Source: Candidatus Daviesbacteria bacterium RIFCSPLOWO2_01_FULL_39_23
Lineage (GTDB): Bacteria; Patescibacteriota; Microgenomatia; Daviesbacterales; UBA10151
Direction: 5' to 3'
DNA: 62,884 bases
Assembly (NCBI GenBank): GCA_001776935.1
Contig: MFDN01000003.1
Location: 1 to 62,884, forward strand
In this document: positions 2,215 through 58,835 of the stretch, piece by piece
Layout of the letters: the number at the start of each line of letters is the position of its first letter
How positions within the stretch are numbered: position 1 is the first letter of the stretch
Program-made: the position numbers and the translations under genes
Notes under the pieces: generated by a model
What the model saw: only the letters and a program-made list of their open reading frames with translations
Database searches by the model: none
Told to the model about the DNA's origin: nothing

Positions 2215-2424
2215 TTAAATAGGTTTGCCGGCTAAGCCGTATAGTAGAAGATCTCTTACAAAACCAATTGACTGAATCGGCCAGGATAGGATAACGCTAT
2301 AAAACCCGGGTGATAAAAAAGATAAAAACGGCCAGCGGTAATAAAGGGCAAAAGCGATTGCAAATATAAAACCAAGCATAAAATAAACAATTGCAATACT
2401 TGAGACTATATTTGATCTTTTCAT
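2215..2424 (-). CDS. small two-TM membrane protein
   Basis: 69 aa, two long hydrophobic helices; start overlaps gyrA stop by 1 nt (TAATG). Confidence 0.45.
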   Translation of the reverse strand: MKRSNIVSSIAIVYFMLGFIFAIAFALYYRWPFLSFLSPGFYSVILSWPIQSIGFVRDLLLYGLAGKPI

Positions 2425-5072
2425 TAAGTTGTTTCTTTGGATGAAACCACTGTTGCGGCAGCCACTTTCTCACCGGGTCTTACCCTCATTAAGATTACAC
2501 CTTGAGTTTGCCGCTGTAATGTGGGAACTTCTGCCAGGTTCATCTTTATGAGTTGTCCTTTAGTTGAAGTCATAACTAAGGTATCCATATTTTCATTTAA
2601 AGCCTGGGCTGTGACAATGGGGCCGGTTTTAGCAGTAACTTGGGCCGCTTTTACGCCTTGTCCTCCTCTGCCCTGTCTGCTCCATGCAGAAAACTTGGTT
2701 TTTTTACCTAATCCGTTTTCCATAATAACCAAAAGTGTTTCCTCGTCGCTTTGAACAGTATTTAAAGAAACCACTTCGTCTTTGCCGGTAAGCCTTATGC
2801 CTCTTACTCCTGAGGTGTCCCTGTGGGTTGGTTTGACCTGGGCTTCCGTAAAGCGAATGGATTTCCCGTCTTTTGAAACAATAATCAAATCATCTTTGCC
2901 GCCTGTTGCAGCCACCCAACCAAGCTCGTCTCCTGAATCCAACTTTATAGCAGTCAGGCCATTTTTGCGGATATTGGCATATTCTTCCAGGCTCGTTTTT
3001 TTGACTGTGCCTTTTTTGGTACACATAAAGAAGTATTTAGCGCTTTCACCTTTTTGGCGGGTGGTTAAAACTGCCGTTATTTTTTCTCCCTGTTCAACAT
3101 TTATTAAATTAACAACAGCCTGTCCTTTGGCAGTCCGCTGGGTTTCCGGAATTTCCCAAACCTTAATTTGAAAAACTCTTCCTTTATCCGTAAAAAATAA
3201 AATATTGTCATGTGTTTGAGTATAAAAGATATGGGAAACAGCATCTGTTTCTTTGGTGGAAATACCCATAACTCCTTTTCCGCCTCTGCCTTGCGTCCTG
3301 AAAGAATGCGGAGACTGGCGCTTGATATAACCTCCTTCGGTTATGGTGGCGATCGTTACTTCATTCGGCACTAGATCTTCTTCTGAAAACTCCCCTACTT
3401 TTTGTTTATAAACGCGGGTTCTGCGTTCGTCTGCATATTTTTCCTTAATCCTGATAAGTTCGTCTTTTATAACCTTTAAAATTTTCTCTGGGTGTGCCAG
3501 CAGATCTTCTAAATATGTAATTGTTTCCCGTACCATCTTAAGCTCATCGTCAATTTTTTGCCTCTCTAATGCTGCAAGCCGCCTAAGCTGCATATCCAAA
3601 ATTGCCACGGATTGAATTTCTGTTAATTTAAACTTTTCCATTAAATTCTGTTTGGCAGTATCTGCGTCTTTGGATTTTTTAATGATTTCTATTACTGCAT
3701 CAATATTATCTACTGCTATTTTTAATCCTTCTAAAATGTGTTCTCTTGCTTTTGCTTCCGAGAGTTCAAATTCTGAACGCCGTCTGACAACTACTTGTCT
3801 GTGGCGGATAAATTCTTCCAGGATATGTTTTAAAGTTAAAAGGTGCGGTACACCGTCTGAAAGGGCAACTAAATTAACATTAAAAACAGACTGCATTGCA
3901 GTATGCTTATAAAGGTTATTTAAAAGGGATTGGGGTTTGGCATCCCGTTTCAAATCGAAAACAATTCTAACCATCTGTTTTCTGTCGGATTCATCGCGCA
4001 AATCCGCAACACCTTCCAGTTTTTTGTCTTTTACCAAATCTGCAATTTTAGCAATTAAAGTGGCTTTATTAACCTGATAAGGCAGTTCGGAAACTATAAT
4101 CTGCATTTTTCCGGCAGCTGTTTCATCTATTTCCGCTTTTGCCCGCATCACAATTCTTCCTTTGCCTGTACCGTATGCTGCCAAAATTTCTGTTTGGTCG
4201 TAAATAGAAGCACCTGTTGGAAAGTCCGGACCTTTCACAAATTGCACCAGATCTTCAACGGTGGTAGTGGAGTGGAAGCTATCAGTTTTCAGTATCGCTT
4301 CGCTTGCCTTCGGCTCGCCTCGATCCGGCGGAGCGGGCGTGGCTCCGCTGTCAGCTGTCAGACTTTCTGAATTTTCTGACGACTGACGACTGACGACTGA
4401 CGACTCTTTCTCCGGATGTTCTATCATATAAACCAACGCATCGCAGACTTCTCCCAAATTATGAGGCGGGATTTGAGTGGCCATACCCACAGCAATACCG
4501 GAAGCGCCGTTTAAAAGTAAATTCGGGATTACAGAAGGCAAAAGTACCGGTTCTTGCGTAGTGCCGGAGTAATTATCTATAAATTCTACTGTATTTTTAT
4601 TGATATCCCGAAGCAGTTCTTCGGAAATTGCAGAAAGACGGGCTTCGGTATAACGCATGGCAGCCGGAGAATCGCCGTCAATTGAACCGAAATTTCCCTG
4701 CCCGTCCACCAGCATATATCTCATGGAAAAATTTTGGGCCATTCTGACCATAGCTTCATAAACAGGGGCATCCCCGTGCGGGTGGAAATTCTTTAACACT
4801 TCTCCGACAACTGCTGCGCTTTTTTGAAAACGCGAAGTGTGATGCAGGCCCTGCTGATGCATGGCATAGATAATTCTTCGTTGGACCGGCTTTAAGCCGT
4901 CCCGGACATCAGGTAGCGCCCGGGATACAATAACAGACATGGCGTAGTCGAGGTACGACTTTTTCATTTCATCAATGATGGGAATTAATTGAATTTTGCC
5001 TATATTCATGCGGTTTTTAAACAAAAATTGAGCTTGCAGCTCAGATTTAATTATACCTTTTTTTGATCTCAA
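2424..5072 (-). CDS. gyrA: DNA gyrase subunit A
   Basis: [36 protein letters not shown] active-site Tyr region, GPDFPTG, C-terminal repeat domain; more likely start MNIGKIQL at 5009. Confidence 0.95.
4270..4408 (-). repeat. in-frame ~46-codon insert in gyrA: MITE-derived GC-rich part plus (CTGACGA)n word hairpin
   Basis: Extra peptide [47 protein letters not shown] between conserved IEHPE and [17 protein letters not shown]; DNA shares CAGCGGAGCC and GAGGCGAGCCGAAGG strings with MITE 46680-46792. Confidence 0.65.
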
Positions 5073-10042: not shown

Positions 10043-11342
10043 GAACAATTTTTCTTGCCAGTTTATCTATATCCCCTGCTCCCATAAAAAAAACTACATC
10101 ATCAGGTTTGATTTCCCCCCCCAAAATTTCTACCAGCTCATTTTTACTATGATAGACAAGAATATCTAAGTTTGCTGTATCAACTAAATCTTTGGCATGG
10201 ACTAGTCCAGCATCTGCTTCCCTGCTGGGATAAATATCTGTCAAAATAATCTTGTTAACAGGAATACTTCCAAAAACTTTTATAAAATCATTAAATAATG
10301 CTTTTGTTCTGGAAAACATGTGAGGTTGATAAACTAAAACTATTCTTTGTTTAGGAAATTTCTGCCTGGCTGCTTCCATAGTTTTTTTTATTTCTGTCGG
10401 ATGGTGGCCAAAATCTGAGTAAACCTGTGCATTTTTATAGTCACCGATATATTCAAATCTTCTGCCTACTCCGGTATAGTTTTGCAAACTTTCCTTGATA
10501 ATTTGCGGGTTTAGACCAAGTAATAATCCCACCCTAAAAGCAGCAGAAGCATTTAGTTTATTAAATTCCCCCGGAATTTTTAGATTTAAGTTATAGTCAT
10601 CGTTTGAATAATCAAAGCTTGTAACAGAAGTTTGTTTCATGACATCTTTTAAAATTAAGGCAATAGCAGGATCTTTTAAATTCGCCACAATTGTTTGTTT
10701 AGTCTGCAGCAAAAATTTTTTAAAGCTTTCTTTTACTGCTTCAAAGTTTTCGAAATATTCCGGGTGGTCCATTTCAATATTGGTAACTATTGTAATATCC
10801 GGTTTCAAATGCAAAAAATTGTCATTAAATTCATCCGCTTCTACAACGAAATATTTACCTTTACCAATTCTGTAATTTGATTTCCATGATGGAACTATTG
10901 CCCCGAGTTCTGCGGTCGGATCTAAATTTGCATCTTCCAGCGTTTTGGCAATCATGGCTGTTGTGGTGGTTTTGCCGTGTGTGCCGCAAACAGCAATAAC
11001 GAATTTATCTTTTGTTAAATACTCTCCCAAAAATTGCTGCCAGGTCATTACTGTAATCCCTTTTTCTTTGGCAGCCAGTAGTTCCGGATTATTTGGGTCC
11101 AGCGAAAAAATTGCCGGAGTAAGTGCCAAAATATCTACGTTCCCACTTCCGATGTGGGAAGATAAATGCTGACTGCTGTGGCCGGTAAAAAGCTGATCAG
11201 GTTTAAATTGGGTTGTGAATTCATTATGAGGGTTTAAATCACAGCCTGTGACTTCAAACCCAAGAGATTGTGCAATTGCCGCAGCTCCTGAAATTCCACT
11301 TCCTCCTGTTCCTAAAAAATGGACTTTTACTCCCATGATCAA
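10029..11342 (-). CDS. murC: UDP-N-acetylmuramate--L-alanine ligase
   Basis: HFLGTGGSGISG, P-loop GTHGKTTT, Mur ligase length (437 aa). Confidence 0.9.
   Translation of the reverse strand: MIMGVKVHFLGTGGSGISGAAAIAQSLGFEVTGCDLNPHNEFTTQFKPDQLFTGHSSQHLSSHIGSGNVDILALTPAIFSLDPNNPELLAAKEKGITVMTWQQFLGEYLTKDKFVIAVCGTHGKTTTTAMIAKTLEDANLDPTAELGAIVPSWKSNYRIGKGKYFVVEADEFNDNFLHLKPDITIVTNIEMDHPEYFENFEAVKESFKKFLLQTKQTIVANLKDPAIALILKDVMKQTSVTSFDYSNDDYNLNLKIPGEFNKLNASAAFRVGLLLGLNPQIIKESLQNYTGVGRRFEYIGDYKNAQVYSDFGHHPTEIKKTMEAARQKFPKQRIVLVYQPHMFSRTKALFNDFIKVFGSIPVNKIILTDIYPSREADAGLVHAKDLVDTANLDILVYHSKNELVEILGGEIKPDDVVFFMGAGDIDKLARKIVLNPN
11140..11160. repeat. REP-like hairpin TTCCCAC-TTCCGAT-GTGGGAA inside murC
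   Basis: 7-bp stem read directly; translated in frame as SHIGSGN. Confidence 0.6.
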
Positions 11343-12431: not shown

Positions 12432-12534
12432 GTCATTCTGAGTGACTAACGAAGAATCTCTTGCGTATGCAAGTACAGTAATGTAACTGACATAAAGTCA
12501 GAGATCCTTCGTCGCTACGCTCCTCAGGATGACA
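12432..12534. mobile_element. MITE-like element with GTCATTCTGAG / CTCAGGATGAC inverted termini
   Basis: Terminal inverted repeats read directly; internal GAAGAATCTC box and CTTGC-GTAT-GCAAG hairpin; related copies at 26964, 46680, 54584. Confidence 0.7.
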
Positions 12535-16648: not shown

Positions 16649-16727
16649 TAGAGACTAGTCGCTAGAGTCAAGAGTTGAGTAAGATTATTTGTTCTCCTAG
16701 ACTCTAGATTCTAGACTCTTGATTCTA
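16649..16727. repeat. word hairpin (TAGAGTC/GACTCTA words) overlapping holB 3' end
   Basis: Arms 16649-16680 and 16694-16727 are imperfectly complementary; the last holB codons (PKLESRV) are encoded by the right arm. Confidence 0.5.
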
Positions 16728-17388
16728 ACTTTGGCATTACGAGCATTAAATATTCCAATATTGCCCGAATATTTACATTTTGTTTGGCCCATTGCTCCGC
16801 CGGTAAAAGCTCTTTTAAAAACTGTAGGACATCAGGCTTTTTGTATGCATTTTTAAGCATTTCCTGACGGAAAAAGTAAACCAGGCAGTGTAAAAACTCC
16901 TCTTTATTTTTAATTTTTTCAACATATTCAAAGCGATTTTCAAAAGATGAGTCAAGCAATTTTTCTATTTCTTTTATATAGACCTCGTAGGTCGTAGGCT
17001 CGCCGCCTGCGAGGCCGGTTGTCTCAAGGCGGACAATTTCGCACCTGGATAAAACAGTGGGTAAAAAGTTAGCATCGGAGCTTGCGCCCAATATTAAGAG
17101 AGCATCCCTGGTTAATTCCTCAATTGTTTTCAAAAGGGCATTTTGGGCTTCCGGGGTTAAAATTGAGGCATCTTCTAAAACTGCTGCCCTGCCTTTGGCA
17201 GAGAATGGTTTTAAAGAAAAGTGTTCTTTTATTTTTCTGGCTTCAGCTATGCCTAACTTTTCTCCAGCCGGAAAAAACAAAATGTCCGGATGCTTTACGT
17301 TCCCACATTCGATGTGGGAAGCTAAAGTTTTTTGAATTTCTTCTTTGATTCTTTCTTTGTCCGGGGATAATAAAAGCCTTGCAATCAC
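16711..17388 (-). CDS. holB: DNA polymerase III delta-prime-like subunit (short form)
   Basis: 225 aa; AQNALLKTIEE box typical of clamp-loader delta-prime/tau; no clear Walker A. Confidence 0.6.
   Translation of the reverse strand: MIARLLLSPDKERIKEEIQKTLASHIECGNVKHPDILFFPAGEKLGIAEARKIKEHFSLKPFSAKGRAAVLEDASILTPEAQNALLKTIEELTRDALLILGASSDANFLPTVLSRCEIVRLETTGLAGGEPTTYEVYIKEIEKLLDSSFENRFEYVEKIKNKEEFLHCLVYFFRQEMLKNAYKKPDVLQFLKELLPAEQWAKQNVNIRAILEYLMLVMPKLESRV
17300..17320. repeat. REP-like hairpin TTCCCAC-ATTCGAT-GTGGGAA inside holB
   Basis: 7-bp stem; translated in frame as SHIECGN. Confidence 0.6.
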
Positions 17389-19120: not shown

Positions 19121-19189
19121 CTGTCAGTCATCAGACTTCAGCTATCAGACTTAAAAAATCTGACGACTGAAGACTGAAAGCTGATGACT
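19119..19189. repeat. word hairpin (CTGA-GACT words) between pilB and pilT
   Basis: AGTCATCAG...CTGATGACT outer 9-bp stem, AAAAAA loop; the right arm TCTGACGACTGAAGACTGAAAGCTGATGACT recurs in gyrA and recG. Confidence 0.6.
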
Positions 19190-22245: not shown

Positions 22246-22339
22246 ATTAGGTTTTAGTATGCTTTGAAAGGTCGTGCTTGCGAGAAAAATTTGCGGCACG
22301 GCCTTTCTTTTTTTAGTCAGGTTTTTAGAAAATACAGAT

Positions 22340-23266
22340 ATGAGTTATTTATTCACGGTTATTGGTTTTATCCTGGGAAGCGTACTCGGAAGTTTTGTCA
22401 AAGCACTTGCTGATAGAAGTCTAACCAGAAAATCTTTCTGGGGAAGATCGTATTGTTTGATGTGTAAGAAGAAATTACAATGGTATGACCTTATCCCTAT
22501 TTTTTCATATTTATTTCTAAAAGGAAAATGCCGATACTGCAAAAAAAATATCGGGACAGAATACCTAGTAGTTGAAGTGGTACTGGGATTTTTAATAGCT
22601 TTTTTGTTTTGGCAAACTTTTCTTGGATTTCAATTTTCCCTTACTGAACTTTCGGTTTCATATGAGGAAAGATTCCGCTTTTCAATTTTTTTATGGAACC
22701 TTTTTTATAAAACCTTCTTTATAGTAGTTTTGGCGATTCTTTTTTTGACTGATATTAAGAAAATGCTTATTCCGGACAGGATAATTATTCCTTCCATTAT
22801 AATCGGTATTACCTGCTTAGTGATCGTCACTATATATAAAGTTTCCTATCTTTATTACCTGCTTTCCCAGTCTTCTTTCGGACGCAAACTTCTGCCGCCG
22901 CACAGCGACTACTTTCAAAGGCATGCTTTTTTATCTGTTGAGCCTTTAATTTACGGAATTGCTGCAGGTTTTTTGATCGGTTTGTTTTTTACTGGGCTGA
23001 TCATAATTACCCGCGGCAAAGGCATGGGCGGAGGGGATGTAAAGCTGGGAGCATTTATGGGGATAATACTGGGATTTCCGCAGGCTCTTTTAGCGCTTAT
23101 GCTGGCGTTTTTTACGGGAGCTATTTTTTCTTTATTCTTAATTATTCTAGGAAAGAAAAGTTTTGGTCAATCTATTCCCTTTGGGCCTTTTTTAGTTTTA
23201 GGCAGTTTAACTGCGCTTTTTTGGGGCGATCAAATACTTGATTGGTATTTGCATTTGGGAAGATAA
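22340..23266 (+). CDS. pilD: prepilin peptidase / N-methyltransferase PilD (A24 family)
   Basis: CLMC...CRYC zinc motif, multi-TM, catalytic GGGDVKLG box. Confidence 0.9.
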   Translation: MSYLFTVIGFILGSVLGSFVKALADRSLTRKSFWGRSYCLMCKKKLQWYDLIPIFSYLFLKGKCRYCKKNIGTEYLVVEVVLGFLIAFLFWQTFLGFQFSLTELSVSYEERFRFSIFLWNLFYKTFFIVVLAILFLTDIKKMLIPDRIIIPSIIIGITCLVIVTIYKVSYLYYLLSQSSFGRKLLPPHSDYFQRHAFLSVEPLIYGIAAGFLIGLFFTGLIIITRGKGMGGGDVKLGAFMGIILGFPQALLALMLAFFTGAIFSLFLIILGKKSFGQSIPFGPFLVLGSLTALFWGDQILDWYLHLGR

Positions 23267-23308
23267 AATAATTTACAATTTACAATGTACAATTTACAAT
23301 GAAGGCAG

Positions 23309-24331: not shown

Positions 24332-24781
24332 ATGTTCCGGAATACAAAAGGTTTTACCCTGATTGAACTCCTTATTGTTGTCACTATCATTGCTGTTTTA
24401 TCTGCCATCGGATATGCAGTTTTCAGTGGTCTTTCCACCTCAGGAAATGATTCCAGAAGGAGAGGAGATCTGAAAGCCATCTCAGATGCGTTAGAAGCAA
24501 AAAAAGGTACTAATTCCAATTATCAATTAATTAAAGCAGGTTCTTTTACGGGAGGGGTTATTCCCAAGGAGCCAACAGGAAGGGATGAAAAATACTGTTA
24601 CGGCGAGGATAATACACCGATTGATAACCCATCTGTCTGGACCGGCAGTACCTGCCCTGTTGGTATCCCAACTAACATTGATAATGCTGCTACAATTGGA
24701 ACCAATAATTTTCCTTATTATAAAGTATGCGCAGTTAATGAAAAAAAAGACGATGTAATTTGTTTTGGCAGCAGACAATAA
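24332..24781 (+). CDS. type IV pilin-like protein
   Basis: MFRNTKG|FTLIELLIVVTIIAVL; 5' 77 nt nearly identical to the previous gene. Confidence 0.85.
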   Translation: MFRNTKGFTLIELLIVVTIIAVLSAIGYAVFSGLSTSGNDSRRRGDLKAISDALEAKKGTNSNYQLIKAGSFTGGVIPKEPTGRDEKYCYGEDNTPIDNPSVWTGSTCPVGIPTNIDNAATIGTNNFPYYKVCAVNEKKDDVICFGSRQ

Positions 24782-24793
24782 TGCCTTTTCTAC

Positions 24794-24822
24794 TTGAAAT
24801 AATATTGCTTACTTGAAATAAT
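24794..24822 (+). promoter_or_regulatory. putative promoter TTGAAA-17-AATAAT inside a 14-nt direct repeat (TACTTGAAATAATA x2)
   Basis: Repeat copies 24791-24804 and 24810-24823 read directly. Confidence 0.4.
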
Positions 24823-24829
24823 AGATTTA

Positions 24830-25354
24830 ATGCCCAAATCTTTACGCGGATTCACCCTTATAGAACTTTTGGTGACTGTGAGTATTATTGCCATATTGGC
24901 AACCATCGGCCTTATTGCCTACTCTTCTATTTTAGCGCAGGGACGGGATTCAAAAAGGCAATCGGATTTGCGATCCATTCAATCTGCCCTGGAGCAGTAT
25001 TACAGCGACCAGGGGTTTTACCCTACGGCAGGTCCAGTTGGTACCCAACAGCAACAGGGGCTTAATGATCTGTTAGCGTCTACCACTACCCCGCCTCCTG
25101 CTTTTGACAGCAATACAGGCAATCCTGTAACTTCCGGCATAATTAAAAAATACATTAACCAATTGCCTCATGATCCGGCAGAAATAGATTATTATTATGA
25201 AGCGTTTTCAAGCAATTTATCATCATGTGACAATAGTACTACTAACAAATGCACAACTTATTGTCTTTATACTCAATTGGAAAGCCTTTCTGCAAATGAC
25301 TTAAAAGGATGTCGAGAAGTTTCCACCTATAATTTTGCCCTCACTCCCCCATAA
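24830..25354 (+). CDS. GspG/PulG-like pilin
   Basis: SLRG|FTLIELLVTVSIIAIL followed by GRDSKRQSDLRSIQSALEQYYSDQGFYP. Confidence 0.85.
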   Translation: MPKSLRGFTLIELLVTVSIIAILATIGLIAYSSILAQGRDSKRQSDLRSIQSALEQYYSDQGFYPTAGPVGTQQQQGLNDLLASTTTPPPAFDSNTGNPVTSGIIKKYINQLPHDPAEIDYYYEAFSSNLSSCDNSTTNKCTTYCLYTQLESLSANDLKGCREVSTYNFALTPP

Positions 25355-25403
25355 GAAAGGTTGCAGTTTACAGGGTGCAGGTTTCAGTTTACAATAGAAT
25401 CAG

Positions 25404-25946
25404 ATGAAATTTTCTGCCCGTGGTTTTACCCTTATGGAGCTTTTAGTGGTAGTTGCCATAATTTCTATTATAGGAGTATATGCACTTTCCAATTATAAAT
25501 CCTTTGGGGAGGATCAAAATTTAAAAAATTCGGTTTTAGATATCCAAAGCAAGCTGCGTACAGCTCAAGCTAATGCCACTTCCAATACAAAATGTGATAC
25601 CCAGTATAATGCTACTTGGGAAGTTGGGTTTGAAAATGATAATGCTGTTAATTTAAACTGCAGGGAATTACCTGATAATATCTATACAAAAAAAACCATA
25701 AATTTGGGTAACATTATACTAACATCAGTACGGGGAGAGCCAGACGCATCCTGCCCGGCGGAGACAGCTTTTAGTGTAATTTTCAATCCACTAAGCGGTA
25801 ATATAAATTTTAAGGATGATAATCCGGGAGGAGGTATTTTGGATGGTTGTTCGAAAATTACGCTAACCTTAGAAAATACTAAAACAATTCCTCCTATACA
25901 AAAAAAATTAATTATTGAAAAAGGAGGAAGGATATATGCAGAGTAA
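25404..25946 (+). CDS. minor pilin (FimT/GspH-like)
   Basis: MKFSARG|FTLMELLVVVAIISII; 180 aa. Confidence 0.8.
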   Translation: MKFSARGFTLMELLVVVAIISIIGVYALSNYKSFGEDQNLKNSVLDIQSKLRTAQANATSNTKCDTQYNATWEVGFENDNAVNLNCRELPDNIYTKKTINLGNIILTSVRGEPDASCPAETAFSVIFNPLSGNINFKDDNPGGGILDGCSKITLTLENTKTIPPIQKKLIIEKGGRIYAE

Positions 25947-26952
25947 CCAATTAACAGTTAACAATGAACAGTTAACAAGTAAAAATCAGTTACTGGACAG
26001 AATATTACGATTTGCAATTGATATTATTAGTCTTGTTGATAAACTTCCCCGGAGTCCTGCAGGTATGAATATTGCAAATCAGCTGGTTAGGTCGGCAACA
26101 TCAATCGGAGCTAATACAGAAGAAGCCCAAGGAGCTTCTTCAAGGAGAGATTTCATAAATAAAATGCATATTGCTTTAAAAGAGGCAAAAGAAAGCAAAT
26201 ATTGGCTTAAGCTTATCCGGCTCTCTCACCTGCAGTCCAGCTATTCAGTGGAGCGCGAACTAAAGGAAGCGGATGAGCTTTGTGCGATTTTTTCTGTTAT
26301 TGTGAAGAAAGCAAAGGTTAACTTGTTAAATGTTAAATCTCAAATGTTAAATGCTAATGGTCAGTCGCTTTTGGAGGTCACAGTGGCTGTGGCTATTGGC
26401 ACCCTGGTGGTGGCGGCTTTAACTTTTGCAACTATTTTTTCTTTAAGAAATGCTAATTTTGCCAAAAACTCTGCCCAGGCCACAAAACTGGCTCAGGAAG
26501 GGATAGAAAGGGTCAGAAGCAGCAGAGACCGAAATCAATGCATAGAAGGTTTGACTAATGTTAACTCCTGGAACGGTAGCACGGATTGTTCTGCCGTATC
26601 TGGATCAGGATCGATTTGGACTTATCCTATATCAGGTGACTGCGACAAACCTGATTTACCTCAAGCAGGTTTTTGCTATTTTAAGGTTAATTCAACTACC
26701 GGACAATTAACAAATATTGGTTTTTCGTTTACACCAACATCCTCTGTCCCATTACCTGCTCAGGCAGAAGGTATTCCTACAACTAACCCGGTATTTAAGA
26801 GGGTAATTCTTCTGTCAGATGATCTTAATCATGATAAAAATTTTACTAACGATGATTATCAAAACCAAAAAGAAGTGACAGTTATTGTTACCTGGAATGA
26901 TTTTGCAGGGACTCATGAATCAAGGTTGACTACTATATTAAGAAAACTATGA
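25936..26952 (+). CDS. four-helix-bundle (23S rRNA IVS-type) domain in frame with a minor pilin-like protein
   Basis: 4HB family signature QLVRSATSIGANTEEAQGASSRRDFINKMHIALKEAKESKYWLKLI (25936 to ~26315; SD AGGAGG upstream). No stop before the internal ATG 26344, which begins MLNANG|QSLLEVTVAVAIGTLVV. Confidence 0.75.
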   Translation: MQSNQLTVNNEQLTSKNQLLDRILRFAIDIISLVDKLPRSPAGMNIANQLVRSATSIGANTEEAQGASSRRDFINKMHIALKEAKESKYWLKLIRLSHLQSSYSVERELKEADELCAIFSVIVKKAKVNLLNVKSQMLNANGQSLLEVTVAVAIGTLVVAALTFATIFSLRNANFAKNSAQATKLAQEGIERVRSSRDRNQCIEGLTNVNSWNGSTDCSAVSGSGSIWTYPISGDCDKPDLPQAGFCYFKVNSTTGQLTNIGFSFTPTSSVPLPAQAEGIPTTNPVFKRVILLSDDLNHDKNFTNDDYQNQKEVTVIVTWNDFAGTHESRLTTILRKL

Positions 26953-26963
26953 GAAGATTTGAT

Positions 26964-27050
26964 TGTCATTCTGAACGAAGTGAAGAATCTCTGACGAATG
27001 TCAGACCCACATTCGTGGGAGATCCTTCGGCTAATCGCCTCAGGATGACA
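26964..27050. mobile_element. MITE-like element (TGTCATTCTGA...TCAGGATGACA)
   Basis: Inverted termini, GAAGAATCTC box, central CCCAC-ATTC-GTGGG hairpin; the last 30 nt are identical to the end of the copy at 54584-54683. Confidence 0.7.
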
Positions 27051-27710
27051 AAGGAACAAGCTCAGGATGAGGGGAGAGAAAATGGTTTTACCCTGGCTGA
27101 AATTATGGTGGTGATGGCTATTACTGCTGTTGTCGGAACAATTTTGGTTTTAATATTTACCAATACGTTAAGAGGCAGCGGTAAATCGCAAATACTGGCG
27201 GTTATAAAGCAGAATGGGCAGTCGGTTTTAGGCAATATTGATAAAACAGTAAGGGATGCAGATAATATAATTTGTCCGACTGGTATTTCTCCTAGTGGCA
27301 GCATTTTAGTTGTTGTCAAAGACGGTGTTTATACAAGGTATCGGATGGTTCTGCCGGATTCATCTGATCCCGTGCCGCTATCCTGCAATGAAAACGGCTG
27401 TATTGCCTGGGATCAGCCGTCTAAGGAGAATGACCTTGATCCTAATACCGGACAGTTGAAATCAGATTCTCAATTTATTAATGATGTTTGCCTGCCAAAT
27501 TCTTTAATGAGTCAAGCTGCGGTTTTAACTGATACCAATTCTCAAACCGGAGTCTCGGTAGAAGATGGGTTTTTTACCCGGAATAAATCTGCAGGATATA
27601 AGGATCAGCTGACGATTGAATTTAAGTTAGGCCCGGGTGCCGGAGTGCCTCAAGCAATCAAAGAACAAATTGATCCGGTGAAATTTCAGACAACAGTGCA
27701 GCTGCGGTAA
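27045..27710 (+). CDS. minor pilin-like protein (PilW-like size)
   Basis: MTKEQAQDEGRENG|FTLAEIMVVMAITAVV; the ATG is supplied by the MITE terminus; the ORF is open from 26949 through the MITE. Confidence 0.75.
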   Translation: MTKEQAQDEGRENGFTLAEIMVVMAITAVVGTILVLIFTNTLRGSGKSQILAVIKQNGQSVLGNIDKTVRDADNIICPTGISPSGSILVVVKDGVYTRYRMVLPDSSDPVPLSCNENGCIAWDQPSKENDLDPNTGQLKSDSQFINDVCLPNSLMSQAAVLTDTNSQTGVSVEDGFFTRNKSAGYKDQLTIEFKLGPGAGVPQAIKEQIDPVKFQTTVQLR

Positions 27711-28601: not shown

Positions 28602-29027
28602 ATGTTAAATGAAAAGGGTGTTTCTTTAATTGAGTCTTTGCTGGTTATTGTAGTGATAGGCTCGATATTATTTCTTATGGCAAATATTCCTAATGCGCTT
28701 CAGTTGGTTGGCAAGAGCAAACACATGAATTTAGCGCGGGAAATAGCCGTAAAACAAATTGAGGATAAAAGAGCAATAGATTATGCAGATATTGCCCTTG
28801 GCAGTTCTGCTGTTTCTGATTACCGCTTAGGTATGCTGCCCAGGGGAAGCGGCACAGTAACGGTGGGAGTGGAAGATGAGGAAGGAGAATGGGTAAACTG
28901 TGATGCCTCAATTTGTGCAAACGGAGAAGATGTGAAACAGCTAACAGTTACAGTTAACTGGCATGATAATAAACCTCAAACAATAACATTAAAAACTATG
29001 ATCGGAGAAGGAGGGATAAACCAGTAA
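28602..29027 (+). CDS. minor pilin-like protein
   Basis: MLNEKG|VSLIESLLVIVVIGSILF with Glu+5. Confidence 0.75.
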   Translation: MLNEKGVSLIESLLVIVVIGSILFLMANIPNALQLVGKSKHMNLAREIAVKQIEDKRAIDYADIALGSSAVSDYRLGMLPRGSGTVTVGVEDEEGEWVNCDASICANGEDVKQLTVTVNWHDNKPQTITLKTMIGEGGINQ

Positions 29028-29056
29028 AGTGCAAAGTGCAAAGTGCAAAGTGCAAA
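29026..29056 (+). repeat. perfect 7-nt tandem repeat (AAAGTGC)x4 spanning a stop/start junction
   Basis: Read directly; gives GTG codons at 29029, 29036, 29043, 29050. Confidence 0.9.
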
Positions 29057-31443: not shown

Positions 31444-31470
31444 GTTTAGGGTATAGCGTTTAGGGTATAG
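31444..31470 (+). repeat. tandem word repeat GTTTAGGGTATAG x2
   Basis: Two 13-nt copies separated by 1 nt, directly after stop 31441. Confidence 0.8.
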
Positions 31471-33818: not shown

Positions 33819-34638
33819 TTTTTGCTTTATCTCGATAAAATCCCGACTGCGAAGTCGAGGGTTTTCCAAAACCGGACGAAGTCCGATCGAGAGAAGATAC
33901 CCCGACCGTTAGGTCGTGGGTAGATTCATTTGCTAAATCAGGCCTGACTTTTTTAGTTTTTTCAAGTGATTTTTTTAACCGCCATTTTTTTATTTCTGCA
34001 TGGTTTCCGGAAAGTAAAACTTGGGGTACTTTTTTACCTTCGAATTCTTCGGGTCTTGTGTAATGCGGGTACTCCAATAAATTTTCGGAAAATGATTCAT
34101 CTTGTATGGCTTCGGGTTTTTCCAGTACACCGGGAATAAGTCTTGTAATTGAATCAACTATTGCCATAGCTGGGATCTCGCCGCCCGTTAAGACATAATC
34201 TCCAATGGAGATTTCCTCGTCAACGTAATTTTCTATAAACCGCTGGTCAACCCCTTCGTAATGGCCGCAGACAATGATTAGATGGGCAAGTTTTGATAAC
34301 TTCCGGGCTTGCGCCTGCTTGTAGGGTTTTCCAGATGCTGAAGTAAGGATTGTGTACGGCTTTTTGCTTTTAGCTGTTAGCTTTTGGCTGCGAATAGCTA
34401 AAAGCGAATTGCTAATAGCCCGTTTTAATGCTTTTGCCAAAATATCTGCCCGCAAAATCATCCCTGCTCCCCCGCTGTACGGCCTATCGTCAACTATCTG
34501 ATGTTTGCCTTCTCCAAAATCCCGGAGGTTTATAAGTTCAAATTCGACAAGACCTTTTTTTTGAGCTCTTTTTAAGATAGAAGAATTTAAAATGGGTTCA
34601 AAGACTTGGGGAAAAAGAGTGATAATGGAAATCTTCAT
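33802..34638 (-). CDS. trmD: tRNA (guanine37-N1)-methyltransferase with internal insert and ~40-aa C-terminal extension
   Basis: MKISIITLFPQVFEPIL, DDRPYSGGAGMIL, GHYEGVDQR, IGDYVLTGGE. Confidence 0.9.
   Translation of the reverse strand: MKISIITLFPQVFEPILNSSILKRAQKKGLVEFELINLRDFGEGKHQIVDDRPYSGGAGMILRADILAKALKRAISNSLLAIRSQKLTAKSKKPYTILTSASGKPYKQAQARKLSKLAHLIIVCGHYEGVDQRFIENYVDEEISIGDYVLTGGEIPAMAIVDSITRLIPGVLEKPEAIQDESFSENLLEYPHYTRPEEFEGKKVPQVLLSGNHAEIKKWRLKKSLEKTKKVRPDLANESTHDLTVGVSSLDRTSSGFGKPSTSQSGFYRDKAKITQKD
33844..33916. repeat. three GC-rich mini hairpins (CGACT-GCGA-AGTCG, CGGAC-GAA-GTCCG, CGACC-GTTA-GGTCG)
   Basis: Read directly at 33844-33857, 33873-33885, 33903-33916; they encode the trmD tail. 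Confidence 0.6.
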
Positions 34639-35515: not shown

Positions 35516-36211
35516 TTATTTTGAGGTCAGATGTCCTAGGGTTTGGGTGGCTGCCTGCTCTTCTGCTATTTGTTTACTGGTGCCTTCGCCCCGGCCCATT
35601 TCCCGGCCTCCAACAAAACAGGCAACGGTAAAGCGCTTGGCATGATCCGGGCCTGCGGTTTTCAGAATTTTATAGTAGGGCGAAGTTTTGAACTTTTGTT
35701 GTGCTATTTCCTGCAAAGAAGATTTTGCATCTTTTGGGGGTCCCATTTTTAATTCTTTTTCAAATAAAGATAATAGTGTTTTATAAATAACTTCTTTTGT
35801 AACTTCCAGTCCCTGATCTAAATATAAACTGCCTAAAAGCGCCTCATAAGTATTTGCAAGTATTTGCGGGTTATTCCTTCCCCCGGATATTTCTTCTCCT
35901 TTGGATAAGCTTAAATATTTCCCTAAGTTTAATTTTTTTGCGGCTTCGGCCAAAGATTCTGTCCGTACTATATGGGCCCGCAGGTTGGTCAGTTCGCCTT
36001 CGGTATCAGAAGTCCTTAAGGAAAAAAGATAGGATGAGACTACTAAGGATAGTACTGAATCTCCTAAAAACTCCAACCGCTCATTTGACTCTAAGACTAT
36101 TTTAACCTCATTCAAATATGACCTGTGCAAGAAAGCTCTGTTTAAGATCTGAGGATTGTTAAATTTTACATTGAGCAGTTTAAGGAGGTCTGCGAAATCT
36201 TGTGTTGACAT
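35516..36211 (-). CDS. rnc: ribonuclease III
   Basis: ERLEFLGDSVL signature and C-terminal dsRBD (AKSSLQEIAQ...HAKRFTV). Confidence 0.9.
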   Translation of the reverse strand: MSTQDFADLLKLLNVKFNNPQILNRAFLHRSYLNEVKIVLESNERLEFLGDSVLSLVVSSYLFSLRTSDTEGELTNLRAHIVRTESLAEAAKKLNLGKYLSLSKGEEISGGRNNPQILANTYEALLGSLYLDQGLEVTKEVIYKTLLSLFEKELKMGPPKDAKSSLQEIAQQKFKTSPYYKILKTAGPDHAKRFTVACFVGGREMGRGEGTSKQIAEEQAATQTLGHLTSK

Positions 36212-37112: not shown

Positions 37113-39203
37113 TCAATCAGGCATCACTTCTGATGCAATATCCTGTAATTTTGCCTTGATTAGTGGGTGTTTGTCAAGAGCAGGATCTTTTGCAAGCAAA
37201 TCCCGTGCTGCCTGTTTGGTTTTTTCAAGGAGGGAAATATTAGAAAAAGATGCAATTTTAAATTCAAATCTTCCGGATTGTGCGCTTCCAAAGATTTGTC
37301 CGCTGCCTCTTATTTTTAAATCAAGCTCTGCAAGTTTTAAGCCGTCAAAAGTTTTTTCTAAGAATTTCAGCCGCCTTGAATCATCGCCTGAGGTGTTTGA
37401 AGTATAAAGCAGACAATAGGATTCTTTTGTTCCCCTGCCAACTCTGCCCCTGAGCTGATGCAGTTGGGCAAGGCCGAAACGTTCTGCTCCTTCGATCACA
37501 ATAATGGTGGCATTTGGATTATCCATTCCCACTTCCACTACAGAAGTGGAGACTAAAATTTGGATTTTGCCTTGGCGGAAATCGTGGGTAATTTCTTCTT
37601 TTTCCTTACCTTTTAACCTGCCATGAAGTAAGCCCAGCTTAAAATTTGGAAAGACTTTTTGTAGATTTTCAAATTCAACTTTTGCGGCTTTGACTGTCTT
37701 TAGTGTTTCTGAGGCCTCGATTAAAGGCGTGATGATATAGGCCTGATCGCCGCCTGCAACTTTTTTGGCAATAAATTTATAAGAATCCAGTCTTTTTCTT
37801 TCAGGTACCAGATAAGTTTTGACAATTTGCCGGCCCTTTGGAAGTTCATCAATCACCGACATATCCAAATCGCCGTATAGAGTTAAGGCGACAGTCCGCG
37901 GAATTGGTGTGGCAGTCATTGTTAAAAAATGCGGCACTTTAGCTCTTTTACGAAGAAAGGTTCTTTGCTCGACACCGAAGCGCTGCTGTTCGTCTACTAT
38001 GATAAGCCCGACATTTTCAATACTTAATTTAGGCGAGAGTAAGGCATGAGTTCCAATTGTAATATCGGGAATTGTAGTATGTATTATGTATTTAGTATTA
38101 ATGGTTTTTTGTTTTTTTCCATAATACTTGCTACTTAATACTTGATACTTTCGGCTTCCCGTATAAATTCCAACCGTCACCTCAAATGGTGATAGAAGCT
38201 TGGTTAAAGTCTCAAAATGTTGGAATGCTAAAATTTCCGTTGGAGCCATAAAAAGTGTCCGGAGATTATTTTTGTGCACCAAATATGCGGCAATTGCGGC
38301 AACTACTGTTTTCCCTGAACCGACTTCCCCCTGTATCAGTCTGTTCATCGGCTGGTTTTTTACAAGGTTCCGGAGAATTTCTTTTAATACTTTGTGCTGG
38401 GCAGAAGTCAATTTAAAGGGAAGCTTACCGATAAAATCCCTAAGGTCTGATTGCTTGATCTTTAAAGGTTCTACGAGAGGTTTTCTGCGCCATGCAAGTC
38501 TTGCTTTTTGGGTGGCTAAAGAGACGTAAAATAGCTCATCAAAGCTTAGTCTTTCTCTGCTTTTTTCCAGATCTTCCCAGGTTTTGGGGAAGTGGATTTG
38601 TTCTAAAGCAGAAGTAAGGCAAATCATCGTGCTGCGGATATCATCCGGCAAAGGGTCCTGTATTTTACCTGTAATTTGCGGCAGAAGTTTGGTAATTTTT
38701 GCACGCAGCCATTTGGATGAAAGTCCCTCAGTTTCCGGATAGATTGGTACTAATCTTCCCGTATGTATTGTCTGACGACTGATAGCTGAAGACTGAAGAC
38801 TCTCTATTTTTTCCCATCTTGGGGCAATGATAGAGAGTTTGTTTTTATATTTACTGATTTTTCCTGAAACCTGCAACCTGTCGCCTGTTTGGATTTGTTT
38901 TGTCAGCCATGAAGAGTTAAACCATGTTAATTCTATGGGTGAGGTGCCGTCATTAAAAATTGCTTTGGTGATAATTTTGCGGGATCTTGTATAAATATTG
39001 GAAATTGACCAGATTTCCCCCTGCAGGGTTACACTTTCCCCTATTTGTGCATCCAGTGCAGATGTATTATTCGAAAAATCATCATACCTGAAAGGAAAAT
39101 GATAAATTAAATCTTCTACAGTATTTAGGTTCAGCTTATTAAGCTTGTATAAAAGCGATGGGCCAATACCTGAGATGGCGGCAAGTGAAGAATTAAGATC
39201 CAT
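37113..39203 (-). CDS. recG: ATP-dependent DNA helicase RecG
   Basis: Walker A GEVGSGKT, DEQQRFG, GTHALL, QLRGRVGRG; the ORF is open to 39314 but MDLNSSLAAISGIG is the likely start. Confidence 0.9.
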   Translation of the reverse strand: MDLNSSLAAISGIGPSLLYKLNKLNLNTVEDLIYHFPFRYDDFSNNTSALDAQIGESVTLQGEIWSISNIYTRSRKIITKAIFNDGTSPIELTWFNSSWLTKQIQTGDRLQVSGKISKYKNKLSIIAPRWEKIESLQSSAISRQTIHTGRLVPIYPETEGLSSKWLRAKITKLLPQITGKIQDPLPDDIRSTMICLTSALEQIHFPKTWEDLEKSRERLSFDELFYVSLATQKARLAWRRKPLVEPLKIKQSDLRDFIGKLPFKLTSAQHKVLKEILRNLVKNQPMNRLIQGEVGSGKTVVAAIAAYLVHKNNLRTLFMAPTEILAFQHFETLTKLLSPFEVTVGIYTGSRKYQVLSSKYYGKKQKTINTKYIIHTTIPDITIGTHALLSPKLSIENVGLIIVDEQQRFGVEQRTFLRKRAKVPHFLTMTATPIPRTVALTLYGDLDMSVIDELPKGRQIVKTYLVPERKRLDSYKFIAKKVAGGDQAYIITPLIEASETLKTVKAAKVEFENLQKVFPNFKLGLLHGRLKGKEKEEITHDFRQGKIQILVSTSVVEVGMDNPNATIIVIEGAERFGLAQLHQLRGRVGRGTKESYCLLYTSNTSGDDSRRLKFLEKTFDGLKLAELDLKIRGSGQIFGSAQSGRFEFKIASFSNISLLEKTKQAARDLLAKDPALDKHPLIKAKLQDIASEVMPD
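38074..38148. repeat. AT-rich word hairpin (GTAT/ATAC words) translated inside recG
   Basis: Arms 38074-38104 and 38119-38148 around a T-rich loop; encodes YQVLSSKYYGKKQKTINTKYIIHTT. Confidence 0.55.
38771..38802. repeat. half copy of the TCTGACGACTGA word element inside recG
   Basis: TCTGACGACTGATAGCTGAAGACTGAAGACTC, near-identical to the right arm of the 19119-19189 hairpin; encodes ESLQSSAISRQT. Confidence 0.6.
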
Positions 39204-39339
39204 GAGGGAATTATATATCAGTATTCCTCCGCACGCATTTAAAATGCGGTTAGAAGCGGCAGAAGAGAAAAAAGGATAATGGCTATTCCGGCAACAACAG
39301 ACAAAATTATCCAAAAAATTCTAAACTTCGGGTTATACA

Positions 39340-42848: not shown

Positions 42849-43145
<297 letters not shown>

Positions 43146-46679: not shown

Positions 46680-48173
<1,494 letters not shown>

Positions 48174-53592: not shown

Positions 53593-54582
53593 ATGGGTGA
53601 AAAAAATCCTGATTTGAGCATAGTAATTTTAAGTTACAACGTCCGGGATTTATTACTAAATTGCCTGGAGTCAATTTTCAAAAATATTACAAAAGAAGAT
53701 AATTGGCAGGTTATTGTGGTGGATAATGCTTCAACAGACGGGTCAGTGGAGGCAGTAAAGGAAAAGTATAAGGTAGCTGAAATAAATTCAGGGATTCTTC
53801 GCTTCGCTCAGAATGACAAAAAAGGTGCTCGGAATGACAACGTTGTAGAACTAATAGAAAATAAGGAGAATTTGGGATTTGCGGCCGGGAATAACGAAGG
53901 TGTAAAATGCGCTAAAGCTCCTGTTATTTTATTTTTAAATCCTGATACTATTATTGTCGGCGATGCCATACAAAAATCTTTGGAGGTTTTACTTTCAAAT
54001 CCGGATTTAGGAGCTTTGACCTGTAAGGTGGAACTGCCTGATGGAAGATTAGACTACTCCTGCCACAGGGGCTTCCCTACTCCCTGGAATTCATTTTGTT
54101 ATTTTGGGGGAATTTCCAAAAGATTTAGAAAATCCCCAATTTTCTCTGGATACACCGCCAGTTATTTGGATATGACTAGTCCGCACGTTGTAGATTGCAT
54201 CAGCGGAACTTTTTTTATGGTCAGAAAAATAGCCGGAGAGCAGGTTGGTTTTTGGGATAAGGATTATTTTTTTAACGGCGAAGATATAGAATTTTGCTAC
54301 CGTTTAAAAGAAAAAGGATGGCAGATTTATTATTATCCGTTGGTTAAAATAATTCATTATAAAGGTTCATCTTCCGGGCTTTGGCGTACATCGGGTATGA
54401 AAGTGCAAAAGACGACAAAACTAACTTCTGCTTCTCATGCTGCTTCTGCTATGAAATTATTTTATAAAAAACACTATTATGTTAAATACCCTCCCTTGTT
54501 TCGGGATTTTGTGCTTTGGGGAATATTGCTTTTGGAAAAATACAGGAAGTTTAAAATATTAACTGGATTAAGGTATGAGTAA
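53593..54582 (+). CDS. family 2 glycosyltransferase (rhamnosyltransferase-like)
   Basis: LSIVILSYN, VVDNASTDGS, NLGFAAGNN, NPD, GEDIEFCYR. Confidence 0.85.
   Translation: MGEKNPDLSIVILSYNVRDLLLNCLESIFKNITKEDNWQVIVVDNASTDGSVEAVKEKYKVAEINSGILRFAQNDKKGARNDNVVELIENKENLGFAAGNNEGVKCAKAPVILFLNPDTIIVGDAIQKSLEVLLSNPDLGALTCKVELPDGRLDYSCHRGFPTPWNSFCYFGGISKRFRKSPIFSGYTASYLDMTSPHVVDCISGTFFMVRKIAGEQVGFWDKDYFFNGEDIEFCYRLKEKGWQIYYYPLVKIIHYKGSSSGLWRTSGMKVQKTTKLTSASHAASAMKLFYKKHYYVKYPPLFRDFVLWGILLLEKYRKFKILTGLRYE
53791..53843. repeat. MITE end fragments translated inside the GT2 gene
   Basis: GGGATTCTTCGCTTCGCTCAGAATGACA plus GCTCGGAATGACA; encodes GILRFAQNDKKGARNDN. Confidence 0.65.
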
Positions 54583-54583
54583 A

Positions 54584-54683
54584 TGTCATTCTGAGGTCGC
54601 CACAGTGACAGAAGAATCTCTTGCGAATGCAAGGTACCTCAAACAAGTTGAGAGATCCTTCGGCTAATCGCCTCAGGATGACA
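54584..54683. mobile_element. MITE-like element (TGTCATTCTGAGG...CCTCAGGATGACA)
   Basis: Inverted termini, GAAGAATCTC box, CTTGC-GAAT-GCAAG hairpin. Confidence 0.7.
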
Positions 54684-58659: not shown

Positions 58660-58723
58660 GGATCATACAAGAAATTTTTTAAATAGTCAAACTATGGGGC
58701 TATTTCGCAATTAATGAAATACC

Positions 58724-58744
58724 TTCCCACATTCGATGTGGGAA
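58724..58744. repeat. REP-like hairpin TTCCCAC-ATTCGAT-GTGGGAA (intergenic copy)
   Basis: Identical to the copy inside holB (17300-17320). Confidence 0.65.
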
Positions 58745-58835
58745 TTCGTTTATGTGGAATTTGGTATATCTCATTTACATTATTTTTTGGATATGTAATA
58801 GTTTAATTAATTCTTTAAAGGGAGGGGGTGAATAT

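Follow-up and report, generated by a model that had tools for sequence, protein, structure and literature searches.

A 23S rRNA intervening sequence-type four-helix-bundle cassette apparently captured in frame in the prepilin leader of a Daviesbacteria minor pilin

Introduction

What becomes of a pilin when a gene of the type found in 23S rRNA intervening sequences (IVSs) comes to lie in frame within its leader? The question is raised by an open reading frame (ORF) on contig MFDN01000003.1 of Candidatus Daviesbacteria bacterium RIFCSPLOWO2_01_FULL_39_23 (assembly GCA_001776935.1), of which we analysed the stretch of 62,884 nucleotides (62.9 kb) from position 1, hereafter the window. The ORF (25915/25936..26952, forward strand) encodes a four-helix-bundle (4HB) domain followed by a prepilin. 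A first-pass annotation, made from the letters of the sequence, had noticed this arrangement and offered three outcomes: that the pilin carries a cytoplasmic leader of ~150 residues, that it initiates at an internal ATG, or that a stem around the 4HB coding part is cleaved and the two parts are thereby uncoupled. Here we describe the 4HB part as an IVS-type cassette that lies outside rRNA and, as judged from comparison with orthologous loci, was captured in frame in a prepilin leader.

The 4HB or IVS protein family is large and, to our knowledge, has been without a known function since the 1990s. ORFs of the 23S_rRNA_IVP type are known inside rRNA insertions of candidate phyla radiation (CPR) genomes (PMC11270868). 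Prepilins with a class III signal keep their leader in the cytoplasm, and the leader is cut off after the Gly at position -1 at the membrane's cytoplasmic face (PMC4471445).

Results

A complete 4HB domain and a prepilin share one reading frame

The ORF reads without a stop from end to end, comprising 345 residues if counted from 25915 and giving a product of 338 residues. Residues 29-134 of the longer count match TIGR02436 ('four helix bundle protein') at 88.7 bits (cutoff 24) over profile positions 4-109 of 109, and the domain also matches PF05635 ('23S rRNA-intervening sequence protein') at 65.5 bits (cutoff 33.8), so that the profile search bears out the family membership that had been proposed for residues ~25-135. 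The nearest solved structure is 2RLD (E = 6.9e-19), which has five chains. The core motif of the family, QxxRSxxSIGAN ... E..YW, is present, and the peptides ILRFAIDIISLVDK and SATSIGANTEEAQGASSR form part of the domain. In a 36-sequence alignment that includes the window protein, residues Q49, S56, G58, A59, N60, E86 and W90 are invariant, and the window domain retains every column that is invariant across the family.

At the junction (...NLLNVK/SQMLNANG) the 4HB domain gives way to a prepilin signal, MLNANG↓QSLLEVTVAVAIGTLVVAALTFA (arrow, predicted cut; Met at 26344, Gly at 26359-26361). The stretch NANG↓QSLLEVTVAVAIGTLVVAALTFA contains the Gly at -1, the Glu at +5 and the ~20 hydrophobic residues past the cut that characterise a class III signal. 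The N_methyl and PilV profiles match the pilin part weakly; alignments with more than 100 orthologs show 45-70% identity, the sequence G↓QSLxE is conserved across all of them, and in an alignment of 30 ortholog sequences the window pilin has the consensus residue in 36 of 36 invariant columns. The 4HB domain is thus followed by a prepilin without an intervening stop, as the first-pass annotation had stated.

This arrangement is unusual for the family, whose typical member is a stand-alone protein of ~115-130 residues with its own start and stop. The window 4HB has no stop before the pilin, and it lacks a start codon at the place where its closest relative, a cassette in locus L004 that is described below, has one. 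None of 77 other 4HB genes analysed is fused to the gene downstream, all of them ending within 50 residues of the profile match; no other 4HB domain was found in the leaders of ~200 orthologs of the pilin, and the window holds no second 4HB cassette.

The 338-residue product is recorded letter for letter in 64 blocks of public assemblies, among them GCA_001776705.1, and 24 contigs from these were read. Dozens of independent assemblies, from several sampling campaigns, carry the fusion with both halves free of frameshifts and stops, and none has the stop between 26315 and 26344 that would have separated the two parts. Because the exact product recurs in this way, the missing stop is not a sequencing error. 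One variant, P0001, derived at read level from SRR3989344, has a 20-residue in-frame deletion in the 4HB domain relative to window positions 26125-26190 (EEAQGASSRRDFINKMHIALKEAKESKYW replaced by EEAKESKYW) with the pilin frame intact; the exact P0001 sequence was not found as a recorded gene.

The cassette is an insertion with exact boundaries in a six-codon leader

When positions 25948-26355 are removed in silico, the remaining sequence reads ATG CAG AGT AAC AAT GGT CAG..., that is MQSNNG↓QSLLEV, a canonical leader of six residues that resembles the ortholog leaders MSNNRG, MLNNKG and MFNNKG. Orthologs made up of the pilin alone number more than 100 (185-234 residues) and come mostly from Candidatus Daviesbacteria-type CPR genomes; about half of those listed have leaders of 6-7 residues, and the leaders start with M-x-S/N-x. 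In locus L001 the whole operon is syntenic (the upstream pilin, this pilin, four further genes and PilM) and lacks a 4HB gene. These loci supply the empty site that had been called for, and the cassette is an insertion with exact boundaries in a leader of six codons.

The same comparison reassigns the translation start. The first-pass annotation had credited the 4HB ORF with a Shine-Dalgarno (SD) sequence and ATG of its own. Orthologs free of any cassette, however, have the same AGGAGG ~8 nucleotides (nt) before the ATG. Within 18 nt upstream of the start, ~58 of 71 ortholog loci have a complete AGGAGG or GGAGG, and a handful of others a weaker 4-nt AAGG or GAGG. The overlap of the start with the preceding pilin gene, which the annotation had reported correctly, amounts to 11 nt, and it too is found in L001 (upstream gene end 4572, pilin start 4562). 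Because orthologs without a cassette share both the AGGAGG spacing and the 11-nt overlap, AGGAGG and the ATG at 25936 are the native start signals of the pilin, which would now also serve the cassette. The coordinates of these and the other features are collected in Table 1.

Table 1. Positions of the cassette, its parts and neighbouring genes in the window
Feature	Position	Strand	Basis and remarks
Inserted IVS-type cassette, 408 nt = 136 codons, in frame, no stops	25948..26355	+	In silico deletion; orthologs
Shine-Dalgarno AGGAGG	25922..25927	+	8 nt before ATG 25936; read from sequence
Native leader codons 1-4, ATG CAG AGT AAC = MQSN	25936..25947	+	Overlap upstream pilin TAA 25944-25946, which lies inside the new ORF
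Left terminal arm, ~5 tandem 7-mers CAATTAA CAGTTAA CAATGAA CAGTTAA CAAGTAA	25948..25983	+	Inverted repeat I1; Tandem Repeats Finder (TRF)
4HB domain, full length	25999..26316	+	TIGR02436 / PF05635; residues 29-134 of 345-residue ORF
Right terminal arm, tandem 7-mers of TGTTAAA type	26318..26353	+	Inverted repeat; TRF
Internal in-frame ATG in right-arm heptamer, possible alternative pilin start (leader MLNANG)	26344..26346	+	Sequence read
Native last two leader codons, AAT GGT = N G; predicted cut between 26361 and 26362	26356..26361	+	Ortholog conservation
Mature PilV-like minor pilin, 196 residues + stop	26362..26952	+	Weak TIGR02523 and N_methyl matches; orthologs
Upstream GspH/FimU-like minor pilin gene, end overlapping leader start	25404..25946	+	Profile matches
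Next minor pilin gene, 46-residue leader	26949..27710	+	ATGA stop/start overlap; 90-nt hairpin 26963-27052 in frame
Prepilin peptidase PilD (A24), ~3 kb upstream of cassette	22274..23266	+	PF06750, PF01478
RNase III gene rnc, ~9 kb from cassette, NusB and RecG nearby	35516..36211	-	NERLEFLGD signature; PF14622, PF00636, dsrm

The ends of the cassette are inverted arrays of heptamers

The two arms, each of 36 nt and 78% complementary to the other, sit precisely at the termini of the 408-nt insert. No other inverted repeat within 600 nt in the whole window is as long, and the arms close the minimum-free-energy fold of the region. The arm duplex has a predicted energy of -25.8 kcal/mol, as against -13.0 +/- 3.3 kcal/mol for shuffled arms; among 500 shuffles one matched it, and among 1904 other segments of the window four did. 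The terminal stem alone stands out, since the fold of the whole region is not significant (z = -0.62). The stem is AU-rich and interrupted, with a longest perfect run of ~9 base pairs (bp), and the antisense strand of the arms would pair at least as well (-32.2 kcal/mol); in a comparison of sense and antisense energies across 26 loci, sense-strand pairing was the better in 14.

Both arms are periodic, with a TRF period of 7/14 and a lag-7 self-identity of 0.75 on the left and 0.79 on the right, and both occurrences of CAGTTAACA in the window fall within the left arm. The first-pass annotation had described imperfect inverted arms of low complexity: the inversion and the pairing stand, the latter also in the closest homologous cassette, L004, and the loose low complexity resolves into tandem 7-nt repeats. 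No copy-number variation of the arm repeats occurs among eight recorded protein variants, whose arm-encoded peptides are identical, and there is accordingly no evidence for a phase-variable leader tract. The left arm of scaffold L005 is 100% identical to that of the window. The arms were also considered as an intrinsic terminator, which is ruled out by the absence of any predicted terminator in 24700-27300. The cassette lies between two pilin coding regions and not in an rRNA helix; an Rfam scan of the window found no rRNA, its sole match being one tRNA.

A related cassette retains its own start and stop

The closest cassette is that of L004, from another groundwater genome. Its DNA is 74.5% identical to that of the window cassette (89% in the left arm), its protein is 79% identical, and the pilin that it precedes is a different one, orthologous to window gene 24830-25354. 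In L004 the 4HB gene has its start, an ATG, within the left-arm heptamers and its stop, a TGA, within the right-arm heptamer AAATGAT, and the downstream pilin (MKNVRG↓FTLIE) begins 10 nt past this TGA, at another right-arm ATG. In the window the heptamer that corresponds to the TGA-containing unit reads AAATCTC and provides no stop, and the codon aligned to the L004 start is GTT.

Two copies before different pilins, each with its arms, indicate that the element moved, or was copied, along with its arms. Because the L004 cassette has its own start and stop within the arms, the in-frame fusion is a secondary, lineage-specific capture and not a property of the element. Between the two 4HB genes the ratio of non-synonymous to synonymous substitution rates (dN/dS) is ~0.05 (pN 0.12; pS 0.73, near saturation), from which strong purifying selection on the 4HB protein can be deduced. 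A standing association of this 4HB subfamily with pilins was considered and rejected: the genes for P0123 and P0126 adjoin a glycosyltransferase and an AP (apurinic/apyrimidinic) endonuclease.

Heptamer flanks are widespread among 4HB genes

We collected 80 loci with 4HB relatives (L006-L085) from species-representative genomes of many phyla, of which 77 could be analysed. Their 100-nt flanks pair better than controls from the same locus, with z < -2 in 26 of the 77 and z < -3 in 11. Lag 7 dominates the local periodicity of 55 left flanks and 65 right flanks, compared with 20 of 231 segments taken at random from the same loci; a second analysis ranked lag 7 best in 76% of flanks and in 16% of other ORF edges in the same loci. 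In the CPR, gammaproteobacterial and Bacteroidota examples that were printed out, the arms are long tandem runs of 7-mers, each locus with a word of its own. Both flanks are periodic in 49 loci, and 33 of them have left and right units that are reverse complements of each other with at most one mismatch; when left and right units were drawn from different loci, 8.5% were reverse-complementary. Heptamer flanks span Bacteroidota, Cyanobacteria, Chloroflexi, Planctomycetes, Proteobacteria, Firmicutes and CPR. On these counts the arms covary as wholes, complementarity being kept and the words being free to change between loci.

One instance of such a layout has been described. The IVS in the Coxiella 23S rRNA gene has a 28-bp terminal stem with tandem GACAGAT heptamers before the S23p ORF; the number of GACAGAT copies varies between strains, and RNase III cuts at the first repeat (PMC4990558). 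The likeness to an rRNA IVS that the first-pass annotation had drawn, a stem with an ORF in its loop, is thereby sharpened: the window cassette has heptamer arms as in Coxiella, and such arms recur around 4HB genes in many phyla. Our literature searches found no general link between 4HB genes and heptamer arrays outside Coxiella.

Two further loci, L168 and L169, also hold 4HB genes with heptamer flanks. In L168 a gene for a Y1 transposase (PF01797; 2494-3192) lies 1.4 kb from the heptamer-armed 4HB cassette, which may be coincidence. Elsewhere, Y1 enzymes mobilise hairpin elements.

Prepilin leaders of orthologs carry other in-frame inserts

The leader was surveyed in the DNA of the 71 informative ortholog loci. 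In most the SD-linked start lies 5-7 codons before the Gly; in ~20 (~18 distinct sequences) it lies 10-35 codons before it, and the extra codons are tandem 7-mers (AGTCGTC x4, AAAGTTA x5, AAAAGTC x4, AAATTTC x5, CAGTCTA x3) or strong hairpins. In all ~20 long-leader loci a start preceded by an SD-like motif lies upstream of the insert, and the frame is open onward from it; in most, no further in-frame start follows the insert before the Gly is reached, and any such start has no SD. Were insert lengths to vary freely, about one third would be in frame by chance alone.

The next pilin gene in the window, 26949..27710, behaves in the same manner. Its orthologs normally have the ATGA stop/start overlap and a leader of 3-6 residues, and in the window the leader is extended by a 90-nt hairpin (fold z = -5.5) whose family also occupies the same leader site in ortholog L090. 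Among orthologs of this gene, 12 distinct gaps measure 35 nt or more, and 9 of them are open and in frame from a start at or within ~5 nt of the upstream stop. That inserts persist in frame, open from an SD-linked or overlapping start, argues that leader inserts in these genes are translated. Since these genes overlap or abut, the leader would be the only place that tolerates extra DNA, provided that the insert keeps the frame and brings in no stop, and since the leader stays cytoplasmic and is cut off, its sequence should be largely free to vary.

The hairpin family at 26963-27052 (GTCATTCTGA...GAATCTC / GAGATCCTTCG...CTCAGGATGAC; peptide CHSERSEESL...LRMT) is multi-copy in the window, with further copies at ~12432-12533, 46681-46791 and 54585-54682 and a partial copy at 53788-53830, inside ORF 53593-54582. 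Another pilin gene, at 29029, has a perfect GTGCAAA x4.4 tract (29026-29056) as its start and leader (MQSAKCKVQNLKNRG↓LTLIE); with a GTG in each unit the tract offers a start codon in all three frames, and a slip of one unit would shift the frame.

Further repeats in the window and their effect on assemblies

The window contains ~14 heptamer arrays. In the GyrA ORF (2424-5072, minus strand) a heptamer hairpin at 4347-4405 (AGTCGTC x4 ... CTGACAG x2) is translated in frame. Compared with Bacillus GyrA (4DDQ), the topoisomerase domain has 49 additional residues inserted at one position, and the hairpin encodes the first 20 of them. The RecG ORF (37113-39314, minus strand) has in-frame heptamer arrays or hairpins at 38073-38150 and 38772-38801, one of them in the helicase core at a point where Thermotoga RecG (1GM5) is ~11 residues shorter. 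The GyrA array, one RecG array and an array between PilB and PilT form a dispersed family, and the arrays at 19152, 4368 and 38764 share a CTGACGA/CTGAAGA word family. Further arrays of period 7/14 lie at 1505-1538, 16697-16727, 19126-19189, 23270-23300, 31444-31470, 34359-34419 and 42888-42926, at gene boundaries (for example PilB/PilT and PilD/first pilin), several as inverted pairs. A short palindrome, TTCCCACATTCGATGTGGGAA, occurs in three copies near gene ends (11136-11166, 17296-17326 and 58720-58750) and constitutes a further small family of dispersed hairpins.

Such repeats leave traces in public assemblies. In L002 (1-620) and L003 (Ga0208375_1056503, NODE_98538) the 5' half of thyA is joined to the pilin inside the right-arm heptamers (...FRKYKILNVKSQMLNANG...). 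Their coverage is low, and we rejected them as natural joins in favour of probable chimeras through a shared repeat; they hint at a similar array in or beside thyA of the same population. Scaffold L005 (ANAN16-1 ... scaffold_4655) has 31 unrelated bases at 4520-4550 in place of window 26199-26399 and is otherwise identical, until beyond 5222, after the hairpin at 27071, it runs into a different locus (TsaD); with its 31-base replacement and its jump to another locus, it was treated as an assembly artefact and not as a natural deletion. Gene calls misled by repeats include a truncated 4HB protein, P0122, and a decapitated pilin, P0245. These elements thus confuse gene callers and assemblers, with chimeric contigs and truncated or over-extended pilin calls as the outcome.

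Discussion

Among the three outcomes originally envisaged for the fusion, comparative evidence favours the long cytoplasmic leader. According to our model, which we think on balance probable, the cassette is translated as part of a prepilin leader of 142 residues that contains the folded 4HB domain and is then removed by PilD. The cassette would have lost its own start and stop in this lineage and would now be read from the SD and ATG of the pilin. Ribosomes starting there would pass through the left arm, the 4HB gene and the right arm to reach the class III signal, whose G↓QSLLE sequence and hydrophobic helix would insert into the membrane in the N-in orientation. Through cleavage by PilD after the Gly on the cytoplasmic face, each round of translation would then give one normal mature pilin and one free 4HB protein. 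Translation, membrane insertion and cleavage of the fusion are steps that we infer; PilB, PilT, PilC and PilM/O are encoded in the same operon as PilD.

Several points weigh against this model. The leaders described so far have 6-26 residues and are unstructured (PMC4471445), whereas 142 residues precede the cut here if counted from the SD-linked ATG; counted from Met 26344 there are six, and MLNANG is itself a leader of canonical length. The solved relative 2RLD has five chains, and a Xanthomonas homologue is a pentamer according to work cited in PMC4990558; if the leader formed pentamers, it could interfere with targeting or cleavage. The pilin downstream of the L004 cassette has its start at a right-arm ATG that follows a stop. 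Finally, the fusion is unusual among 4HB genes, with 0 of 77 others showing it, and could be merely tolerated or mildly harmful.

The start of the L004 pilin makes internal initiation a real alternative. On this account heptamers of the AAATGNN type would supply start codons, the pilin would be made from Met 26344, and the fused product would be a by-product of read-through; it could coexist with cleavage of the long leader. MLNANG resembles the ortholog leader MLNNKG, MKNVRG↓FTLIE in L004 does begin within the right-arm heptamers 10 nt after the TGA, and successive ATGs of a 7-nt array fall in all three frames. Nevertheless we consider such initiation unlikely: the 20 nt before Met 26344 hold no SD-like motif, as opposed to the full AGGAGG or GGAGG of ~58 of the 71 ortholog loci, the termination-reinitiation that is available to L004 cannot operate where there is no upstream stop, and ribosomes from the strong SD at 25922 would read through 26344. 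RNase III is the enzyme that cuts IVS stems from rRNA, and it might instead cut the paired arms here, splitting the 4HB and pilin messages and leaving the pilin to be made from a short-leader or leaderless RNA, or to be down-regulated. The pairing energy of the arms and their place at the close of the minimum-free-energy fold would fit, as would an rnc gene within the window and the heptamer stem of the Coxiella IVS, cut by RNase III at its first repeat (PMC4990558); the excess of reverse-complementary units (33 of 49 loci, versus 8.5% of mismatched pairs) points to selection for a stem. The stem itself, however, is AU-rich, interrupted and only 78% complementary, and with the antisense strand pairing at least as well nothing shows that the repeat belongs to the level of RNA and not to that of DNA. 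Both arms would be translated, and ribosomes would melt the stem; a cut would strip the pilin of its only SD; and the strict in-frame rule of the ortholog leader inserts is what translation predicts and excision does not. We rate processing of this kind as quite unlikely.

We attach still less weight to a dead end, in which the insertion inactivated the pilin, or the fusion is degraded, as a recent accident that is neutral or mildly harmful. The rarity of fusions among 4HB genes, the lack of any other 4HB-bearing leader among the ~200 orthologs and the in-frame deletion in P0001 are compatible with such an accident. Both halves are nonetheless intact in dozens of assemblies from several sampling campaigns, the pilin keeps its consensus residue at all 36 invariant ortholog columns, and the capture needed two specific in-frame junctions together with the loss of a stop, as selection for expression of the pilin would yield.

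If the long-leader model is correct, the leader, with its 142 residues and folded domain, would surpass every described one in length by a factor of about five. The prepilin leader, being cut off, would be a general 'safe harbour' for extra coding DNA; the window fusion is not a one-off in this respect, since the same leader carries in-frame repeat inserts in about a quarter of the ortholog loci.

The heptamer-stem rule that extends across the family may be the more valuable lead, joining rRNA IVSs, unexplained heptamers at start codons and the 4HB family in one question. We offer, tentatively and with more doubt than conviction, the proposal that 4HB genes with inverted heptamer arrays form one widespread class of element, of which the rRNA IVS is one context; the 4HB protein would act on the stem by binding, protecting or mobilising it, and in the present locus, where the element would be expressed as a prepilin leader, the membrane peptidase PilD would serve to process a polyprotein and free a cytoplasmic protein. 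Heptamer hairpins and arrays that lack an ORF, whether intergenic, in prepilin leaders or in GyrA and RecG, would then be derivatives or targets of such elements.

Among known systems, the 23S rRNA IVS of Coxiella burnetii and Leptospira (PMC4990558) resembles the window cassette in the protein family encoded in the loop, the terminal inverted-repeat stem, the heptamers of that stem (GACAGAT in Coxiella), the size of ~410-440 nt and the RNase III gene of the host. It differs in context, since the window cassette lies inside a protein-coding region and in frame with the host gene. The Coxiella stem of 28 bp, with one mismatch, is also stronger than that of the window, and the Coxiella ORF has no usable SD and is decaying, whereas the window ORF has a strong borrowed SD and is under purifying selection.

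Palindromic inserts within genes have a precedent in the Rickettsia palindromic elements (RPEs), which Ogata et al. reportedly described in 2000 as selfish palindromic DNA lying in frame in protein-coding genes. RPEs are repeats of 100-150 bp of a non-coding type, with a sequence common to the copies, and they persist where the added peptide is tolerated. Like them, the window cassette is a palindromic insert in an ORF that keeps the frame and is absent from orthologs, and the window also has in-frame heptamer hairpins in GyrA, RecG and a second pilin leader. As to multiple copies, the window holds one 4HB cassette, a 74.5%-identical one precedes another pilin elsewhere, and the CTGACGA-type arrays and the 26963-type hairpin are multi-copy. 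Unlike RPEs, the cassette carries a complete conserved gene, its arm words differ by locus, and the peptide that it adds to the host protein would be cleaved off. In our literature searches no in-frame palindromic elements were found described in CPR.

Tandem heptamers as such are familiar from the cyanobacterial STRR (short tandemly repeated repetitive) sequences. Direct repeats of the heptamer TAACTGA lie near start codons in Beggiatoaceae, Cyanobacteria and Bacteroidetes; they have no partner arm, and the report on them does not mention the 4HB family (PMC4679880). Like the window arrays they have a 7-nt unit and lie immediately at start codons or upstream of them, and the phyla in which they are found also have many 4HB paralogs. 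When TAACTGA is rotated and reverse-complemented, it differs by one mismatch from the window word CAGTTAA. The window arrays, in contrast, are inverted pairs around a 4HB ORF.

The Avd proteins of diversity-generating retroelements (DGRs) belong to the same fold family, being small basic 4HB proteins that are pentameric in solved relatives. A DGR reading was nevertheless rejected: the window has no pair of template and variable repeats (TR/VR), there being no repeat of at least 60 nt near the cassette except pilin N-termini, and the profile match is to the stand-alone proteins of TIGR02436/PF05635. No reverse transcriptase domain was found among the 26 window ORFs scanned against Pfam. In the opa genes of Neisseria, CTCTT repeats in the leader-coding region switch the gene on and off. 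They too are short tandem repeats, with a unit that is not a multiple of three, in the leader of a surface structure; the arms of the window cassette differ in being imperfect, in showing no copy-number variation in the eight variants and in bracketing a whole gene.

The prepilin half of the fusion has its counterparts in type IVb and Tad prepilins, with which it shares the class III signal (Gly at -1, Glu at +5 and a hydrophobic helix) and a dedicated peptidase in the operon. It departs from them in the leader, which has 6-26 residues in described prepilins, or ~15-30 for type IVb (PMC4471445), and a predicted 142, with a folded domain, in the window.

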